This document shows, piece after piece, positions 1 to 16,081 of a stretch of 16,659 nucleotides of DNA. Source of the DNA: Microcoleaceae cyanobacterium (lineage in GTDB: Bacteria; Cyanobacteriota; Cyanobacteriia; Cyanobacteriales; Microcoleaceae); NCBI GenBank assembly GCA_051652765.1, contig JBOFUV010000012.1, positions 1 to 16,659 on the forward strand, given 5' to 3'. The translations under genes were made by a program, and so were the position numbers. Within the stretch, counting starts at the first letter, position 1, and each line of letters begins with the position of its first letter. The notes beneath the pieces were generated by a model. It was not told the DNA's origin. It saw only the letters and a list, made by a program, of their open reading frames with translations, and did no database searches.

Positions 1-199
1 ATTTTTCACAAAAAGCCGCCAATTTTTCTGGAGTTATGTTCAGTCGTTGATAAACCTGTTGTATTGGCATCACATAGCCCGCAATATCCACCTCCCGGCG
101 ATCGCCGTATTCATCATACTTGCCCTCCCACACCAACTCTGTCCGGAGTTGCGACAACAGGTGAGGATTGTAGGGGTCGTTGGTGGGTTCTGGGGTCAT
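1..199 (-). CDS. MNT (minimal nucleotidyltransferase) antitoxin with repeated N-terminal leader, copy 3; runs off the window edge
   Basis: Not in the ORF track. Manual translation from ATG 199: MTPEPTNDPYNPHLLSQLRTELVWEGKYDEYGDRREVDIAGYVMPIQQVYQRLNITPEKLAAFCEK, paralogous to the two complete MNT genes. The start overlaps the HEPN stop (ATGA). Confidence 0.85.
   Translation of the reverse strand, partial: MTPEPTNDPYNPHLLSQLRTELVWEGKYDEYGDRREVDIAGYVMPIQQVYQRLNITPEKLAAFCEK
104..197. repeat. Leader repeat core, copy C (94 bp)
   Basis: By manual alignment 91/94 identical to 899-992 and 82/94 identical to 1438-1531; similarity extends further toward about position 46. Confidence 0.95.
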
Positions 200-534
200 A
201 GGGTCTCTCCTAGTAACAACCTAAGTGATTCTAGGAGGGGTGGCAGGTCAGTTTGGACGACATCCCACACAGTTTCAATATCGATGCGATCGTATTGATG
301 GACAAGAACATCTCGCATTCCTGCAATACTCTGCCAATCAACCGCTGGATGAGCAGTTCTAAAATTCTTTGATAGCCGCTTTGTTGCTTCTCCCAGAATG
401 ATAATAAAGTAAAGAATTGCAGCTTGCTTTTCTTGATTTGTTGACAGTTCTTGAAAGCTAACTCGATCCATTGAAAGCATAATACTTTCTCCTGCCAGAA
501 TCATATCTTCAATTGTTTCTCTATCTCTTGACAT
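196..534 (-). CDS. HEPN/DUF86 ribonuclease toxin (HepT-like)
   Basis: 112 aa with an RX4HXY motif (GMRDVLVHQYD), GEA..L and the P.VDW..IAGMR signature; overlaps the end of the upstream MNT gene. Confidence 0.93.
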   Translation of the reverse strand: MSRDRETIEDMILAGESIMLSMDRVSFQELSTNQEKQAAILYFIIILGEATKRLSKNFRTAHPAVDWQSIAGMRDVLVHQYDRIDIETVWDVVQTDLPPLLESLRLLLGETL

Positions 535-1003
535 AAATAATTCGCGCCGAGTCTAATATATGCTTCTTTCTAATCGAGTTATGACTATTTAATACTTCAG
601 CCTTCATTACTACATCAACATCACGCCCCAATAGTTCTTCCAACTCAATTTTCATTCTCGCTCGTCGTAATAAACTCTTGTTTGCACCAAAACCATAGCT
701 AAAGAGAATATCAATATCACTAGGGTCAGCGCCATTAATGCGAAAGTCATCCCGAAGAATCGACCCAAATAGTGCGAATTCAGCCAAGTTCCACCTTTCA
801 CAAAATGCAATAATTTCTTCAACGGTTGTGTTGAGACGTTGATAGATTTTGTCTGTCTGCATCACACAGTCCGTAATATCCTCCACCTCGTAGTGGTTGC
901 CGTATTCATCATACTTGCCCTCCCACACCAACTCTGTCTGGAGTTGCGACAACAGGTGAGGGTTGTAGGGATCGTTGGTGGGTTCTGGGGTCGTGGGAGT
1001 CAT
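521..1003 (-). CDS. MNT antitoxin (MntA-like) with repeated N-terminal leader, copy 2
   Basis: ALFGSILRDDF...SDIDIL nucleotidyltransferase motif and ELEELLGRDVDVV; lies directly upstream of the HEPN gene. Confidence 0.92.
   Translation of the reverse strand: MTPTTPEPTNDPYNPHLLSQLQTELVWEGKYDEYGNHYEVEDITDCVMQTDKIYQRLNTTVEEIIAFCERWNLAEFALFGSILRDDFRINGADPSDIDILFSYGFGANKSLLRRARMKIELEELLGRDVDVVMKAEVLNSHNSIRKKHILDSARIIYVKR
899..992. repeat. Leader repeat core, copy B (94 bp)
   Basis: gccgtattcatcat...ggttctggggtc, 3 mismatches to 104-197. Confidence 0.95.
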
Positions 1004-1073
1004 TCTTCCAATGAGTTGAGAAAAGTCATCAGGTCAGGTAAATCATTTTATCTCTCGGCCTTTGTGGCAACAT
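1000..1073 (-). pseudogene. Internally deleted HEPN toxin remnant
   Basis: ATG 1073 gives MLPQRPRDK (cf. MSRDR of the intact HEPN, same overlap geometry). The out-of-frame tail NDLPDLMTFLNSLEE* resembles QTDLPPLLESLRLLL and ends in an ATGA overlap with the next MNT. Confidence 0.7.
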
Positions 1074-1533
1074 TATAAATAACCCTGGCAGACTCCAATA
1101 TATGCTGGCGACGAATATAGTTGGGATCAGCAAGAATGGCTGTCTTACTAACCATATCCACCTTTCGCCGTAATAAATCTTCAAGTTCAAATTTCATCCG
1201 AACTTGCAGGATTAAATTCTTACGTGCATCTTCTTCGTCAGTAAACAGCACATCCACATCACTAGGCTGCTCTCCATTCAGCCGGAAATCTTCCCGCAAC
1301 ACAGAACCAAATAAAGCGAATTCGGTCAGTCGCCATTTTTCACAAAAACTAGCAATTTGTTCAGATGTTGTGTTGAGACGTTGATAAACCTGCTGTAGCG
1401 GCGTCACACAGCCCGCAATATCCCCCTCACAGTGGTTGCCGTATTCATCATGCTTACCCTCCCACGCCAGTTCTGTCCGCATCTGCGACAACGAATGAGG
1501 ATTGTAGGAGTCGTTGGTGGGTTCTGGGGTCAT
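1048..1533 (-). CDS. MNT antitoxin with repeated N-terminal leader, copy 1
   Basis: ALFGSVLREDF...SDVDVL motif. Start moved from 1599 to ATG 1533 because it matches the paralogue starts, has AGGA upstream, and 1561-1597 is a terminator. Confidence 0.92.
   Translation of the reverse strand: MTPEPTNDSYNPHSLSQMRTELAWEGKHDEYGNHCEGDIAGCVTPLQQVYQRLNTTSEQIASFCEKWRLTEFALFGSVLREDFRLNGEQPSDVDVLFTDEEDARKNLILQVRMKFELEDLLRRKVDMVSKTAILADPNYIRRQHILESARVIYNVATKAER
1438..1531. repeat. Leader repeat core, copy A (94 bp)
   Basis: 12 mismatches to 104-197, no indels. Confidence 0.95.
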
Positions 1534-1560
1534 GATATTAGTCCTGTGGGAACAACTCAC

Positions 1561-1597
1561 AAAAAACGGGCTAGCCCCGTTACAGTGGCTAACCCGC
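1561..1597 (-). terminator. Rho-independent terminator of the ycf46-ycf35 operon
   Basis: Minus strand CGGGTTAGCC-N10-GGCTAGCCCG followed by T6, about 25 bp after the ycf35 stop. Confidence 0.8.
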
Positions 1598-1621: not shown

Positions 1622-1972
1622 TTACTGAACGATCAACTTGACGTTGGCATTCTGTAAACCACGCTGCTTAACTTCAGACAGAGTCTTGTTCACGGCATAC
1701 TTTTGGTTGATAGCGTTGATCAACTCAGTCTGGTTGTGCTTCTTCGCAACACCCCAAAGGTCAGCGATCAGATCGAAGGTGCCATCACTATTGCGAGACC
1801 AACCTAGATCATACTCGCCATCCAAAACTGCAACCAAATCAGCCCGAACGCGCTGACCGTTGTAGCCACGAACATCAGCATTGGTCTTGGCAGAGATGCC
1901 AAGGTCGCGTAGAGATGCCTTCAGAGTTTCAGCATCGGTGATCTTAGTGCGTAATGTGCTAAAATGAGACAT
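1622..1972 (-). CDS. ycf35: DUF1257 / Ycf35 family protein
   Basis: MSHFSTLRTKI N-terminus, YDLGWSRN.DG.FDLIADLW, QKYA; GGAGG RBS at 1981-1985; lies downstream of ycf46. Confidence 0.9.
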   Translation of the reverse strand: MSHFSTLRTKITDAETLKASLRDLGISAKTNADVRGYNGQRVRADLVAVLDGEYDLGWSRNSDGTFDLIADLWGVAKKHNQTELINAINQKYAVNKTLSEVKQRGLQNANVKLIVQ

Positions 1973-2130: not shown

Positions 2131-3651
2131 TTAGAACTCCAATCGCTGATACTCAGCAACTGAAGATGCAGCTGGCCGCGCTCGCTGACGTGCCCAATCT
2201 CGTAGGGCTGCGATTTGCTCGCTCATCGTCTTTGACAGCGGTTGCGTCGATTTAATCGCGGCAATAATATCTAGCTGCGTAAACTCTCGATCTTGAGCAA
2301 AAGCTTCATACATAGCAGCAATGACAGCTTGCTCGATCTCTGCCCCAGAGAACCCCTCTGATACAGTAGAAAGTTGATCCAAATCGAAGCGGGCAATCTC
2401 TGAACGACGCTTCGATAAATGAATTCCAAAAATATCTTGACGCTCTTCCTTCGTGGGCAAGTCTACAAAGAAAAGCTCATCAAACCGCCCCTTTCTCAAA
2501 AACTCTCCAGGGAGGCGTTCAACTCGGTTAGCAGTTGCCATCACAAACACAGGGGAAGTTTTCTCCTGCATCCAAGTCAAAAAAGAGCCAAAGATCCGAC
2601 TGGACGTTCCACCATCAGAATCTGCAGAACCCGCCCCTCCAGCAAAAGACTTATCTAGTTCATCGATAAAAAGAACTACAGGAGAGATAGATTCAGCCGT
2701 CTTGAGAGCGTTCCGTAAGTTTGCTTCTGAGCGGCCCACTGTAGAGCCATCATAAACTCGGCCCATGTCCAGTCGCAGCAAAGGCAAACCCCACAGCCGT
2801 GACGTAGTCTTTGCAATCAATGACTTACCGCATCCAGGAACTCCTAAAATTAACATCCCCTTGGGTTGAGGTAGACCATACTCCCTGGCTCGCTCGGTGA
2901 ATGCATTTGAGCGCTGCCTGAGCCATCTCTTCAACTCCTCCAAACCACCAACGGAATCAATGGTTTCATCAACCTCAATGTATTCCAGAATCCCATTCCG
3001 CCGAATCAGTTGCTTCTTCTCCGTCAAGACAATGTCAACTTCAGATTCAGTGAGCTGCTTCCGAGTGACATAGGACTTGCGATAAACCTTTTCTGCTTCG
3101 TCCCGAGTTAAGCCCAGAGCTGCTTTCAACAACTTCTCACGGGCCTCAGTTGTAACCTTCCGCGTCCGGGCCTTTTCAAGTTGAGTTGAGAGTACCTGCC
3201 CCAACTCTTCCATAGTCGGCAGCGGAAAATCAAGCACAACAACTTCCTTCTCCAACTCAATCGGGATGGCATGAACAGGAGACATTAGAATAATGGCCTT
3301 GCTAGTCCCTCTAAAGCTTGCCACAGCATCCCGAAGACACCGAGTGACCTCTGGAGAATCTTTGAACGGATGCAAATCCTTGAAAACGTAGATGCTACCC
3401 CCGCCATTTGGCTCCCGATGCCGAATGACCCACTCAATGGCCGCCTGAGGAGATACCGTGTTAGACTGAACTGCGGTTCGAGGCTGATCGCACTTCACCA
3501 AACCCCGAGTCAATGTCCAAATGTAGACTTCTCGTTGACGCTCTACTTGAGCAATCCTAGCAATGGTTTGCTCAGATCGCTCTTCCTCAGACGTAATGAG
3601 GTAGATCAGAGGATACTGAGACTCTATTAAGATACTAAGTTCTTCGTGCAT
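2131..3651 (-). CDS. ycf46: Ycf46 family AAA+ ATPase (Synechocystis Slr0374-like)
   Basis: Walker A GVPGCGKS, Walker B LFIDELDK, second region of homology ATANRVERLPGEFLRKGRFD; degenerate N-terminal AAA domain (YPLIYLITSEEER). Confidence 0.93.
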   Translation of the reverse strand: MHEELSILIESQYPLIYLITSEEERSEQTIARIAQVERQREVYIWTLTRGLVKCDQPRTAVQSNTVSPQAAIEWVIRHREPNGGGSIYVFKDLHPFKDSPEVTRCLRDAVASFRGTSKAIILMSPVHAIPIELEKEVVVLDFPLPTMEELGQVLSTQLEKARTRKVTTEAREKLLKAALGLTRDEAEKVYRKSYVTRKQLTESEVDIVLTEKKQLIRRNGILEYIEVDETIDSVGGLEELKRWLRQRSNAFTERAREYGLPQPKGMLILGVPGCGKSLIAKTTSRLWGLPLLRLDMGRVYDGSTVGRSEANLRNALKTAESISPVVLFIDELDKSFAGGAGSADSDGGTSSRIFGSFLTWMQEKTSPVFVMATANRVERLPGEFLRKGRFDELFFVDLPTKEERQDIFGIHLSKRRSEIARFDLDQLSTVSEGFSGAEIEQAVIAAMYEAFAQDREFTQLDIIAAIKSTQPLSKTMSEQIAALRDWARQRARPAASSVAEYQRLEF

Positions 3652-8728: not shown

Positions 8729-10453
8729 TTAGCCTAACCGCTTAATTTTTGCCTTTAATTTTGCCTGATCCTCCTCTGTTTTTTGCACTTCTTCTTTGCG
8801 AGTTGCATAGGCAGGAAAAGGAAAGCGGATCAAAAGTGGGGCGGGAACTTCCGGTTGCTGAATAAATAATGACCCTGACTTCAAAAACAACACCCGATCT
8901 TTAGCAGAAGCGGTTAAAAAGTTATATTCAGGTCTTGTGGCCTCCGCCGAATCTAACCGACCCACAACTCGTACTGCCGCCTGTCCAACTACCCGCCGTT
9001 CTACCTCGGAAGCAGTTTGTTGTGCGCCAATCAAAATAATGCCTAACGACCGACCCCGTTCAGCAATATCGGTTAACAAGGATTTGATCGGGCTGCGGCC
9101 TTCGCGAGGGGCGTACTTATTCAACTCATCTAGGGTAACCATCACAATCGGTTCTCGGCCTTGACGTTCCTTTTGGGTGAACAGCCGTTGCAAAATTGTC
9201 CCCACCACAAACTTCTGGGCCCGTTCTCCAAGCCGATGAATGTCTGCCACAATGATCTGGGCTGACTCCGTCAAGGGATCAAGTCGAAAGGTCGCAATTT
9301 CGTCCGGGGCTAAATCCCCTCGAATCAAATGTTCTACTTCGGCCCGAATCCCAAACAACCGCCGAATCAGGGCATTAGCTGTTGCTGGAGCGTTTTTACT
9401 CAGCCATCGGGGTTCCTCTTCTGTGATTAATTTATCTTCCAGGAACCGAATCAGATCGCTGAAACTTTCAATAAATTCTTTGCGATCTTCCCCGTAGGAA
9501 TCAACGTGTAAACCCGACAGGGGTTGACCCAATTTTTTGTCATCTCGGTCGTTTTCCTCTGCTAGTTGAGCCAATCGTTCTTCCACATTGGAGATTAAAT
9601 AGGGCAAATTCCCGCGTTCTAAATCTTCCCCGGTGAACAGGAAACTAAATAGGCGATCGCGACACACCTCTCGAATACTCCAGAGATAGGGCGTTACCCC
9701 TTCAGCCCGCTGATCTAGATTCACTTCGATCTGGGGCACACCGGGTTTTGGGGTCGCTCGAAAGCTGACATTCTGAAACGGAATTGCTGGAAGATTGAGT
9801 TTTTGATAGGTTGAGGAAACGTCTGAGGCTTTTTTATTCAGTTGATCAATGAAGAATAAATCTTCCCCTTTAACATTGAAGATCAGGGCTTTTGTATTGG
9901 CCTTGGCCGTGCCCAGAGTCTTGGAATTGAATATGGAATGGAGCAAAAACAGCATATAAGAGGTCTTCGTTGCCACCCCAGACAAACCGGAAATATTGAT
10001 GTGTGCGCCTTTTTCCCCGTTGATGAAAGAGAAATTAACCGATGCCGGAGAGCCATTGGTCATCAGCCCCGCCGGAATCGGTTTGTCCATGCTGTCAAAG
10101 TACAATGCCTGTTCCAATTGACTACCCAACGCCAGTTCCACCGGAGTTCCGGGAAAGGGCGGTAACAACTCCTCCTCCGGTTCAATCCGGGTCACCCGCA
10201 CATGGGCCGTGTAAGACGTGTTGATCGGCAATTGGCCCTGCTGGGCCAAGAACGTATCGCTGTCGAACTGGGCTCCTTCATATTGGGTTTGTACCCGATC
10301 GACAATGCCGTAGAATTCAATTCTGGCTCCGGTGTCCGGTCGTTGAGTCACAACCTTGACAACATCGTCTAATCGCAGGGTTTGGCCCGCATCGACCGCC
10401 ACCCAAAATTCTAACGGGGTTGCCGGTTGGGTTCCCAGAATATAACCAATCAC
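8729..10453 (-). CDS. herA: HerA-like ATPase/DNA translocase (HAS barrel + FtsK/HerA ATPase), bacterial type
   Basis: N-terminal beta-barrel, variant Walker A HINISGLSGVATKTS, Walker B VTLDELNKYAP, ERGRSLGIILIGAQQ; GTGA overlap with nurA. Confidence 0.85.
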   Translation of the reverse strand: MIGYILGTQPATPLEFWVAVDAGQTLRLDDVVKVVTQRPDTGARIEFYGIVDRVQTQYEGAQFDSDTFLAQQGQLPINTSYTAHVRVTRIEPEEELLPPFPGTPVELALGSQLEQALYFDSMDKPIPAGLMTNGSPASVNFSFINGEKGAHINISGLSGVATKTSYMLFLLHSIFNSKTLGTAKANTKALIFNVKGEDLFFIDQLNKKASDVSSTYQKLNLPAIPFQNVSFRATPKPGVPQIEVNLDQRAEGVTPYLWSIREVCRDRLFSFLFTGEDLERGNLPYLISNVEERLAQLAEENDRDDKKLGQPLSGLHVDSYGEDRKEFIESFSDLIRFLEDKLITEEEPRWLSKNAPATANALIRRLFGIRAEVEHLIRGDLAPDEIATFRLDPLTESAQIIVADIHRLGERAQKFVVGTILQRLFTQKERQGREPIVMVTLDELNKYAPREGRSPIKSLLTDIAERGRSLGIILIGAQQTASEVERRVVGQAAVRVVGRLDSAEATRPEYNFLTASAKDRVLFLKSGSLFIQQPEVPAPLLIRFPFPAYATRKEEVQKTEEDQAKLKAKIKRLG

Positions 10454-11478
10454 ACCAAAACTCCTTCATGCAACAAAAAATTCTGCAACCGCCGAGAAAC
10501 CAAGGTTTGATTCCCCATGAACCGAGCCAATTCCCGTTCCAAGGCTCCTACCGGAGTTAGGTTCTGAGGGGCGCGGGGGTCACGACTGGGAATTGAAGCA
10601 TACTCTGGAATTAACACGCACATTTGGTTGGCAATTTCTATGGCTTGATCCAGTCCAACATTACCGTATAGATCCAACCGAACGATACCATGCAACCCGT
10701 GATACCCCAGAGCTTGAGGGTTCAAACTGGCTTTCCCCGAGCGGAGATACCAACTCCAACGACGTTTGGGACTACCAGACTCCCCGAGGGCAAAAATCGG
10801 GGTGCGTTCCCCAGACTGGAGTTGCCAGAGAATTTCGGCCTTGTCCCCTTGCAAATACGCTCGCCCCATGGTCTTCACATACCCAACCGCCAGATCGGGA
10901 GAACGGTAAGGCTGATACAACAAAGGGCCATCCCGGATCACCATTAAATTTGGTTCTTCTGCGAACTGACTGGCATAGCGACTTTCCTCGGTCAGCATTG
11001 CCTCCTGAATCAGATTCAGAGGGGTTTGGGGATCGTTAGCAGGATCAGTGAGGGTCAAGTCGTAACACAATTCTCCCAAACCCCCTGAAGGAGCAGCAAT
11101 TTGGGCTTTTGGCGGCAAGCAGTTTCCCCCGGTCGCAATCACCCGCCGGACAATGGGCTCCAAACATATTGCTTGATTCTGTACCCGATCGACCAGAACG
11201 CCGCCAACCGCAACCGTTCCAAAAGCGCCCATAATCAGATTATTGCCACTCCGTCCCATAAACCGAGCATCCAAACGCCGCCGACCATCGATAAACAATA
11301 ATCGGTCAGGAAGAGCGATCGGGTTCGGGGCAGAACAGGGTTCCCAGGCCGCCTGTTCGACCTCTAGTTCAATGGCAACATCAGACTGGGTTTCACCGAC
11401 TGAAAATCGAACTGGGGTATCATAGTCGATTCCCCAGGGTTCTAAGCGAATATCATAATTTTTCCAGAAGCTATCCAA
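10450..11478 (-). CDS. nurA: NurA-like nuclease (RNase H fold)
   Basis: FIDGRRR and IRDGPL acidic motifs, GYVKT, GERTP.F, SWYLR, DPRAPQNL.P..ALER; coupled to herA. TTG start is uncertain. Confidence 0.82.
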   Translation of the reverse strand: MDSFWKNYDIRLEPWGIDYDTPVRFSVGETQSDVAIELEVEQAAWEPCSAPNPIALPDRLLFIDGRRRLDARFMGRSGNNLIMGAFGTVAVGGVLVDRVQNQAICLEPIVRRVIATGGNCLPPKAQIAAPSGGLGELCYDLTLTDPANDPQTPLNLIQEAMLTEESRYASQFAEEPNLMVIRDGPLLYQPYRSPDLAVGYVKTMGRAYLQGDKAEILWQLQSGERTPIFALGESGSPKRRWSWYLRSGKASLNPQALGYHGLHGIVRLDLYGNVGLDQAIEIANQMCVLIPEYASIPSRDPRAPQNLTPVGALERELARFMGNQTLVSRRLQNFLLHEGVLV

Positions 11479-11547
11479 TTTGCCTGAAGTTGAGTTTGGA
11501 CTAGCTAGATTTTAACGTCAACAGGAAAAACAATGACTCACACTTCA

Positions 11548-11609
11548 AAATACTTTTCAAATACTTTTCAAATACTTTTAAAGTATTTGGAAAAATACCT
11601 TAAAAATAC
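11548..11609. repeat. 11-bp-period AAATAC repeats with an embedded palindrome upstream of nurA
   Basis: AAATAC at 11548, 11559, 11570, 11593 and 11604; palindrome CAAATACTTT-T-AAAGTATTTG at 11569-11589. Confidence 0.75.
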
Positions 11610-14683: not shown

Positions 14684-14860
14684 AATTCTCAACTACTCAT
14701 CCAATCCTCAGCAGTTTCCAATTAAACCATCAGTTAGTTCTCAGCCACAATTCAGGGTTGCGTAGCTTAAATAGGTTGATTGCAATTTTTGCATTCTCTT
14801 GCATGGCACTCTGCATCTTTGTTTGCGGCAATCAACCTATTCACTCAGGACAACTCAACT

Positions 14861-16081
14861 ATGGCAACTCAACAAGTCACGATTAGCGTCGAGAACCTTG
14901 CGCCTGCGAATGGAACACTGGTAACTCCCGTTTGGTTTGGTTTCCATGACGGCAACTTTGATACCTATGATCGGGGACGACCTGCATCTCCTGGTTTGGA
15001 AAGCGTGGCGGAAGATGGAGCAACCGCTCTAATTTCTCAAGAGTTTGACTTGTCTGGGTTCGGTTCAGTTCAGGGGACTATCCTCGGAACTGCGGGCACT
15101 CCCGGCCCCATTGATGCCGGGGAAGTGGCTACGTTTATGGTTGAACTGGATTTGAGTGACCCCCAGAGCCAGTATTTCAACTACGCAGCGATGCTCATTC
15201 CCAGCAACGATTTTTTCATTGCCAATGGCAACGAAAAGGCGTTTGAAATTGTGGATGAGAATGGGAACTTTATCGGAGTTGAATTCATTGTTGCAGGCAG
15301 CAATGTTTTAGATGCAGGAACAGAAGTGAATGATGAAGTTCCGGCAAACACCGCATTTTTTGGTCAACAAACCCCGAACACGGGAGTAGATGAAAATGGT
15401 GTGGTTCAGTTAGCCAATGGGTTCATTCCCGAGGGTGATATTTTGAATGATCCTCGCTTTGTCAACGCCGATTTTACAGCCCCAGACTATCAAGTCGCTC
15501 GGATTCGAGTGTTTATTGCAGATGATCGGAGTGGCAACGATGAAGTTGTCGGAACAGATGAGAATGAAACCTTGCAAGGAGGCGATGGCAACGATACGGT
15601 TGCAGGGGGTTTAGGAAATGACCTGGTCGAAGGCAATGATGGAAATGATCTCCTGCGCGGTGATGAAAACCTGCGTTCCTCCAGTCCAAATGGTGGAAAT
15701 GATACATTGTTTGGCGGCGCAGGTAATGATAGCCTTGGCGGCAAAGGTGGAAACGATCAACTTTTTGGCGAAGAGGGTAACGATCAACTCTTTGGTGATG
15801 CGGGAGACGACTTGATAGATGGAGGTTTAGGAATTGATCGTCTGTTTGGCGGAGAAGGCGCTGACCAGTTTGTTCTTGCGGTTGGTGCGGGCCGGGATTC
15901 CGTTCGAGATTTTGTTGTAACTGAAGATGTCTTTCTATTGTCAGAAGGCTTAGCTTTTGAACAACTCGAACTTTCTCAGGGTGGAAATAACGTTTTGATT
16001 CAGTTTGCGGAGACGAATGAACTCTTAGCTGTTGTTAGTAACCTACAAGTTAGTGACCTAACGGCTGCTAATTTCGTTTAG
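14861..16081 (+). CDS. Spondin_N-like domain protein with RTX (hemolysin-type) Ca-binding repeats
   Basis: ENLAP, TPVW.GFHDG.FD, AEDG, PSNDFF, DAGTEVNDE; multiple GGxGNDxL nonapeptides; AGGA RBS before ATG 14861. Confidence 0.85.
   Translation: MATQQVTISVENLAPANGTLVTPVWFGFHDGNFDTYDRGRPASPGLESVAEDGATALISQEFDLSGFGSVQGTILGTAGTPGPIDAGEVATFMVELDLSDPQSQYFNYAAMLIPSNDFFIANGNEKAFEIVDENGNFIGVEFIVAGSNVLDAGTEVNDEVPANTAFFGQQTPNTGVDENGVVQLANGFIPEGDILNDPRFVNADFTAPDYQVARIRVFIADDRSGNDEVVGTDENETLQGGDGNDTVAGGLGNDLVEGNDGNDLLRGDENLRSSSPNGGNDTLFGGAGNDSLGGKGGNDQLFGEEGNDQLFGDAGDDLIDGGLGIDRLFGGEGADQFVLAVGAGRDSVRDFVVTEDVFLLSEGLAFEQLELSQGGNNVLIQFAETNELLAVVSNLQVSDLTAANFV

Follow-up and report, generated by a model that had tools for sequence, protein, structure and literature searches.

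Integrons and tandem islands at tRNA ends hold rows of small cassettes, separated by repeats, behind one promoter. The array described here likewise consists of small repeat-separated cassettes behind one promoter; however, its repeats are ends of protein-coding genes, with neither a nearby integrase nor an attC-like fold. A linked tyrosine recombinase (IntI) was lacking: seven PF00589 matches were found in the genome, none of them on the two contigs (C12 and C130) that carry the array, in agreement with the initial annotation, which had seen no recombinase. No attC-like folded repeat was detected either, since all eight leader strands examined folded no better than shuffled sequences (z of +0.6 to +1.7).

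Insertion with long target duplication has been described for restriction-modification (R-M) genes (Furuta, Abe & Kobayashi 2010; PMC2853133), mostly, in the accessible part of that paper, in naturally competent species, with one case in Microcystis. There, as here, long direct repeats of the target lie on both sides of the insert, which carries no mobile-element genes. On the other hand, R-M genes are the insert in that system, whereas in our array an R-M gene is the target and toxin-antitoxin (TA)-like genes are inserted; furthermore, the event here is iterated into arrays, whose repeat, a coding start, is either fused with the cargo or coupled to it. Direct-repeat flanks of >30 bp, from a target present once in the empty allele, were found by cross-species comparison only, and the inserts contained TA-like or other small genes, not R and M genes. 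The lpl tandem paralog cluster of Staphylococcus aureus (Tsuru & Kobayashi 2008; PMC2568036), as far as the portion consulted describes it, is similar in that homologous recombination takes place at a conserved stretch inside ORFs, and no dedicated recombinase is needed to delete, convert or move units. It differs in that lpl genes are all paralogs, whereas our conserved piece remains from the gene of an unrelated enzyme and is related to none of the cargo families, which are also unrelated to each other. Genes embedded in defence operons were treated by Payne et al. 2024 (10.1101/2024.01.29.577857), and variable cargo also fills the gap between the methyltransferase (mod) and restriction (res) genes of the mod family studied here; however, repeated gene ends are apparently not treated in the available text, in which the words "recombination" and "truncated" do not occur. 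Searches of the open-access literature yielded no account of TA arrays with R-M gene ends between the units, and the mod-stub arrays represent a real, recurrent and apparently undescribed form of a known rearrangement.

Structure of the array and its repeated leader

The window is the whole contig C12 of genome G000 (16,659 nt). Its left end overlaps C130, the only partner listed for that end, by 139 nt, the usual overlap length of this assembly. Extension to the left of position 1, suggested in the initial annotation, showed that the array continues on C130 with two more leader copies, giving five mod stubs in total. Since the copies have diverged (71-89% identity over 45 codons), they are not an assembly duplication, and together with the single overlap partner this ruled out an assembly artefact. 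The order of genes is stub 1-MNT1, HEPN scar, stub 2-MNT2, HEPN2, stub 3-MNT3 and HEPN3 (the last MNT crossing onto C130), followed by stub 4, a DUF4258-like/DUF2283 pair, stub 5, a DUF6883 remnant/DUF4926, the mod C-terminus, XisH, XisI, Uma2 and res remnants. Features within the window are listed in Table 1.

Table 1. Features of the array and its flank within the window
Feature	Position	Strand	Basis or remark
Stub 1, mod codons 1-45, decayed, in-frame fusion to MNT1	1399..1533	-	PADLOC MTase_III PDLC03633, residues 11-50
MNT1 body, GS-X14-DXD, HEPN partner deleted	1048..1398	-	PF01909/PF18765; alignment
HEPN1 scar, start region joined to last ~14 codons	1000..1073	-	L031 HEPN match
Stub 2, mod 5' end with three additional N-terminal codons and a 1-codon insertion	860..1003	-	PDLC03633, alignment
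MNT2 body	521..859	-	PF01909, E 1.8e-9
HEPN2, predicted HepT-like RNase, RX4HXY (RDVLVHQY)	196..534	-	PF01934, E 1.9e-23
Stub 3, best-kept mod 5' end within the window	65..199	-	Similarity search
MNT3 start, continuing on C130	1..64	-	139-nt overlap
Terminator-like hairpin 3' of DUF1257 gene	1557..1581	-	Island begins directly behind
Host flank, DUF1257 gene	1622..1972	-	Orthologues 89-93% in G001/G002
AAA ATPase gene, preceding DUF1257 gene	2131-3651		

Three minus-strand units starting at 1533, 1003 and 199 had been reported, and were confirmed; recomputation reproduced the agreement of the 104-197 core with the two other copies (91/94 and 82/94) and of the MNT bodies of units 1 and 2 (U1 and U2; 62/107 amino acids). 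The leader was in frame with MNT, as proposed. At units 2 and 3, the start codon shares an ATGA with the stop before it, HEPN2 itself overlapping both the end of MNT2 and the ATG of unit 3; this overlap continues at unit 4 on C130, and unit 5 is without it. The reported HEPN scar is also real: its last 43 nt matched the 3' end of the HEPN gene at locus L031 by 84%, with a further 10-nt match near the start of that gene.

Similarity searches show the repeated leader to be the opening ~45 codons of mod, the methyltransferase gene of a type III R-M system. The 45-amino-acid leader matched 512 proteins, and the best 120 matches were mostly N6_N4 methyltransferases of 500-870 amino acids or truncated starts, plus MNT fusions. 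Stub 3 showed 73-86% amino acid identity to these 120, mostly Mod N-termini. Protein P0020 matched the PADLOC type III methyltransferase model PDLC03633 with an E value of 6.5e-225, and the U1 and U2 leaders matched the start of the same model. The large gene downstream of mod at L020 (1161-amino-acid ORF) is a type III Res (REase_III, E 2.8e-25), and res remnants lie on C130. A Pfam match of the leader to RHS was below the cut-off and was disregarded. In G000, mod is reduced to codons 1-124 and 592-696 and res to three fragments, so that the type III R-M system is dead here; as the leader is a mod 5' end, the array is a by-product of an R-M operon. The proposal of a cassette array stood in its alternation of repeat and cargo, while the repeat is no novel leader.

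The DUF1257 gene next to the island was called ycf35 in the initial annotation. The site behind it does not serve as a conserved platform: the same-genus genomes G001 and G002 lack the island, and in them another gene directly follows the DUF1257 terminator, with divergence starting right behind the hairpin, so that the island is lineage-specific at that site; other arrays adjoin other genes.

Elsewhere in the window, an overlapping pair at 8729-11478 (minus strand) comprises a 342-amino-acid ORF without a Pfam match and a 574-amino-acid HerA-like ATPase with weak PADLOC matches, presumably a NurA-HerA pair; an AT-rich near-palindrome with repeated AAAAGTATTTG units (11540-11595) lies upstream of it. 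A Spondin_N-like domain fused to RTX calcium-binding repeats is encoded at 14780-16081 (plus strand). GC-rich palindromic repeats occur at deletion joints inside mod and res (L001:12770-12900 and L001:10690-10790). In stubs, insertions of a short element (reading FASAFR…) recur at mod codon 45 (L001:13245-13262 and L001:14125-14142; also in P0005, P0010, P0018 and P0040), and this element resembles the short dispersed repeats of cyanobacteria.

Cargo, recurrence and junctions

The cargo had been described as MNT-HEPN alone. Only three of the five stubs are followed by MNT/HEPN units; the others carry one DUF4258-like/DUF2283 pair and a DUF6883 remnant/DUF4926, the labels DUF4258-like and DUF6883 being taken from relatives (the DUF4258 match was below the cut-off). 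We assume these other pairs to be TA-like. Adjacent PF01909 and PF01934 genes are present in units 2 and 3, and unit 1 has lost its HEPN, which leaves MNT1 an orphan. Class I HepT/MntA modules, according to the part of PMC7641770 consulted, have a PF01909 gene upstream of a PF01934 gene, RX4HXY in HEPN and GSX10DXD in MNT. The array units share this gene order and RX4HXY in both HEPNs (RDVLVHQY and RDIVVHDY), but differ in a 4-residue insertion in MNT (GS-X14-DXD in place of GSX10DXD, with the catalytic residues kept), in a Mod-derived N-terminal extension, and in scores below the NCBIfam cut-offs for MntA and HepT. MNT2/HEPN2 and MNT3/HEPN3 are predicted to be HepT/MntA-type pairs, in which MNT would AMPylate a HEPN tyrosine. 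A PDB search gave no match for HEPN2, and only 1wot for the MNT profile.

A genome scan with the leader gave 341 matches, and 77 loci, several with little upstream DNA, were drawn from the best 80, a choice that may favour multi-copy loci. At least two mod 5' copies were present at 16 of the 77: 15 of the stub-cargo type and one whole-operon tandem (L026). They were found at 14 of 32 cyanobacterial-type loci (by our own grouping, L013-L047 without L038, L045 and L046), L026 being one of the 14, and at two of the remaining 45, one a Planctomycete and one a Nitrospira record. By cross-species comparison only, mod was single at 61 of the 77 loci, versus stub-cargo-mod at 15. The five copies of G000 were the highest number seen. 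In a 400-genome sample of the phylum, the leader matched in 9 genomes, indicating an uncommon family, and two strong copies were found in none; this sample also yielded a leaderless stub-DUF4926-mod (L099), which is outside the tally of 16. When metagenome sequences were scanned with MNT bodies, most matches were distant MNTs and the leader matched at 3 of 80 loci.

Cassette number and order vary between loci, as had been anticipated. Cargo includes MNT-HEPN, DUF6883/DUF4926, DUF29, DUF4258-like/DUF2283, ORF6N and an ATPase. The order is DUF4926, DUF4258-like/DUF2283, MNT-HEPN at L031; DUF6883/4926, MNT-HEPN at L024; DUF4258-like/DUF2283, DUF29 at L043; and three MNTs followed by DUF2283 at L021. 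The same junction types recur across genera in shuffled order, and the stub-DUF4258-like-DUF2283 block is ~81% identical between G000 and L039, L043 and L031. Mod stubs also precede a 1607-amino-acid helicase-nuclease (PADLOC PDC-S37-like; L045:853-5957) and an ATPase (L063:8586-9967), both in records of non-cyanobacterial type, indicating that larger defence-like genes serve as cargo too. A decayed stub-MNT-HEPN-stub with no mod left lies behind minD/minE-like genes (L116:5920-6760). The mod-res gap at L013-L089 is a highly variable cargo slot across phyla (XisH/XisI, PIN, DUF4258-like pairs, Uma2 and others).

Stub ends cluster at mod codon ~45-52 or ~122-125 (stub 4 of G000, with an internal deletion, reaches codon ~124), scatter over ~15-25 nt, and also occur at other break points. 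The first site is inside a conserved block, where mod reads MQKI and MNT begins M/L/I-Q-Q/K-I/V-Y. The second (site B) lies close behind the DPPF motif, at the beginning of a variable loop, so that its apparent sharpness may partly be a detection effect. Spacers at site-B junctions did not match mod stop regions, and their origin as the mod 3' end (one long internal deletion) was rejected. CTATAAT, a putative -10 box, preceded 21 of 29 first or single copies versus 0 of 22 later copies, which suggests that cargo was placed between a promoter-bearing stub and a new mod start. No res remnant was seen before later copies, and CTATAAT was absent before the first stub of the window. Two small-share DNA read sets gave short pieces only; one 197-nt contig (depth 3.6, too thin to count) connects 529 with 75, so that HEPN2 and stub 3 are missing, and this variant joint is not leader-to-leader.

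A second array, of the mirror type, was found on contig C148 of the same genome (~104500-111250; L002:4560-11250, minus strand), behind a different, Eco57I-like gene. Its eight stubs are copies of the 3'-terminal ~100-130 nt of a type IIG gene (…YDIKYRMG…), several ending in GGAGG plus a stop just before the next ATG and several beginning at or near GCGATCGC, a HIP1 site. The cargo consists of MNT-HEPN, in which the unfused MNTs have the X10 spacing, three XisH-XisI pairs and other small pairs. The type IIG end piece matched in 10 of 400 other genomes, with three decaying stubs behind the gene end at L193 (G338), one stub behind the gene at L194 (G226), and two near-whole type IIG genes in tandem with three small genes between them at L195 (G186), which is possibly an intermediate. 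The presence in one genome of 5' stubs of mod and 3' stubs of a type IIG gene, two unrelated R-M genes, suggests a general process.

Divergence of leaders and MNT bodies

Synonymous divergence (pS) was 0.14-0.30 in leaders versus 0.60-0.63 in MNT bodies (Fisher p of 0.004, 0.001 and 1e-5). Together with the incongruence of leader and body, this gap rejected plain tandem duplication and upheld the initial description of a conserved repeat alternating with divergent cargo. The U2 and U3 leaders are 0.96 alike and their bodies 0.58, whereas the U3 body is 0.71-0.72 alike to the bodies of L015, L022 and L044; in general, adjacent bodies in G000 are 0.58-0.64 alike to each other and 0.71-0.77 to bodies in other genera. 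In the opposite direction, the L022 and L044 cassettes (L022s and L044s) have leaders 0.76 and bodies 0.88 alike, and the L022 leader is 0.89 alike to the mod of its own locus versus 0.71-0.76 to cassettes of the same type with bodies 0.87-0.88 alike. Leaders follow the locus, and bodies follow the cassette type.

This own-locus signal was not uniform. The L015 leader is 0.80 alike to its own mod and 0.82 to that of L044. Outside G000, 4 of 14 stubs best matched the last mod start of their own locus among 34 starts and several ranked 9-23, where two reference copies (L041b and L044b) are also broken genes; the four G000 rows, in which the fifth copy used as the resident mod is a stub, are omitted from this count, which becomes 6 of 18 with them. 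Similarity to the last copy (in G000 again the fifth stub) rose along the array in G000 and L046, was flat in L024 and reversed in L031, and polarised array growth was not borne out.

A leader remnant (at least 10 bits) was detected in 65 of the 122 closest MNTs, three of which are those of G000, and a near-intact one (at least 60 bits) in 35. Leader-bearing MNTs were scattered over all body clades of a weakly resolved tree, which was built by a quick method from 112 columns with one row skipped and left many forks open. The insertion giving GS-X14-DXD is common to all MNT bodies shown (10 of 10 in the alignment), which suggests one ancestral fusion. By a rough nearest-neighbour count, leader pN/pS was 0.07 in 21 mods versus 0.30 in 8 MNT fusions; pN was 0.101 on MNTs versus 0.020 in mods, with similar pS. 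Since amino-acid changes accumulate in MNT leaders, the leaders decay and seem to be renewed from mod. The leader had been thought to supply the translation start; because in-frame ATG/GTG codons lie near the junction, and two related leaders contain a frameshift or stop ahead of an open MNT body, it is not strictly required for this.

Origin of the arrays

We consider it probable that the array consists of leftover mod 5' ends with cargo, built and reshuffled by RecA-type homologous recombination at the mod start. Rare illegitimate joins would make stub-cargo junctions at codon ~46, where mod MQKI resembles an MNT start, or near codon ~122; near-whole tandem genes with cargo between (L026 and L195) may be intermediates. 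Such a join was perhaps made by homology-facilitated illegitimate recombination, a process described in PMC6382021 (as far as the part consulted goes). Because the cargo of stub-cargo-mod DNA is flanked on either side by homology to mod, a double crossover could insert it into any mod of the family, and the cargo would thereby acquire the recipient's own 5' end. A crossover between direct repeats would loop out units or homogenise neighbouring leaders. The stub would lend the mod promoter and translation start, and the stop/start overlaps would couple the chain. With mod and res destroyed and the promoter motif gone in G000, the array has outlived its host operon. comEC and dprA are present in G000. 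The homology arms are 135-370 bp with 80-95% identity, which is short for efficient recombination. With one genome per species compared, no cassette gain, loss or exchange event was observed. HIP1 possibly plays a role at some joints, and is dispensable for this model.

An origin within the genome only, in which mod-cargo(-res) operons were duplicated in tandem and eroded to stubs while their leaders underwent gene conversion, with little transfer between lineages, appears unlikely. Whole or near-whole tandems do exist (L026 and L195), deletions pervade the locus (HEPN1, mod and res), L075 resembles a deletion that starts at codon ~50 and reaches into the mod-res cargo, and the U1-U3 leaders share private changes. 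However, neighbouring bodies are closer to those of other genera than to each other, later copies are preceded by neither the promoter motif nor a res remnant, and the same junction types stand in shuffled order across genera.

The clustering of cargo junctions at two places in mod might instead reflect a dedicated site-specific or R-M-driven reaction (a recombinase acting in trans, a HIP1-linked process or cleavage by the system's own Res) at an integron-like platform. Of 21 mod loci, 9 carry an allele type with a 7/8 match to HIP1, and all inspected site-B stubs look like this type; several C148 stubs begin at or near the HIP1 site given above, and HIP1 aids integration in Synechococcus PCC 7002 according to 10.1101/2024.09.10.611283. 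We regard this reaction as quite improbable, given the scatter of junctions and the other break points, the bias in the called end point that the variable loop at site B can introduce, the folding of the leaders and the lack of a tyrosine recombinase on C12 and C130; moreover, similar stubs occur in the Planctomycete and Nitrospira records and in the AT-rich G338, at joints without HIP1. It is very improbable that the leader is kept for a function of its peptide, such as a tag that tethers MNT to Mod and lets the TA pair guard the R-M enzyme: the in-frame fusion is widespread (65/122) and the WEGKYDEYG core often survives, but amino-acid changes accumulate in the leaders, which also show deletions, a frameshift and a stop, and G000 has no Mod left.

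Beyond recombination at the mod start, a broader idea, which we hold to be doubtful, is that R-M gene ends are universal integrase-free landing pads, and that cassettes flanked by a mod start or type IIG end are self-targeting and expression-ready and spread between genera by natural transformation. If true, this would be an integron-equivalent for stockpiling TA and defence genes in cyanobacteria and other phyla, possibly driven by an R-M enzyme or HIP1 itself. The origin from mod stubs would explain why the N-terminal extension of one MNT subfamily is the remnant of a methylase, as well as many short "methyltransferase" gene calls. It also offers a concrete way for TA-like and defence genes to accumulate next to R-M genes with no mobile element involved, and competent cyanobacteria make this route testable.
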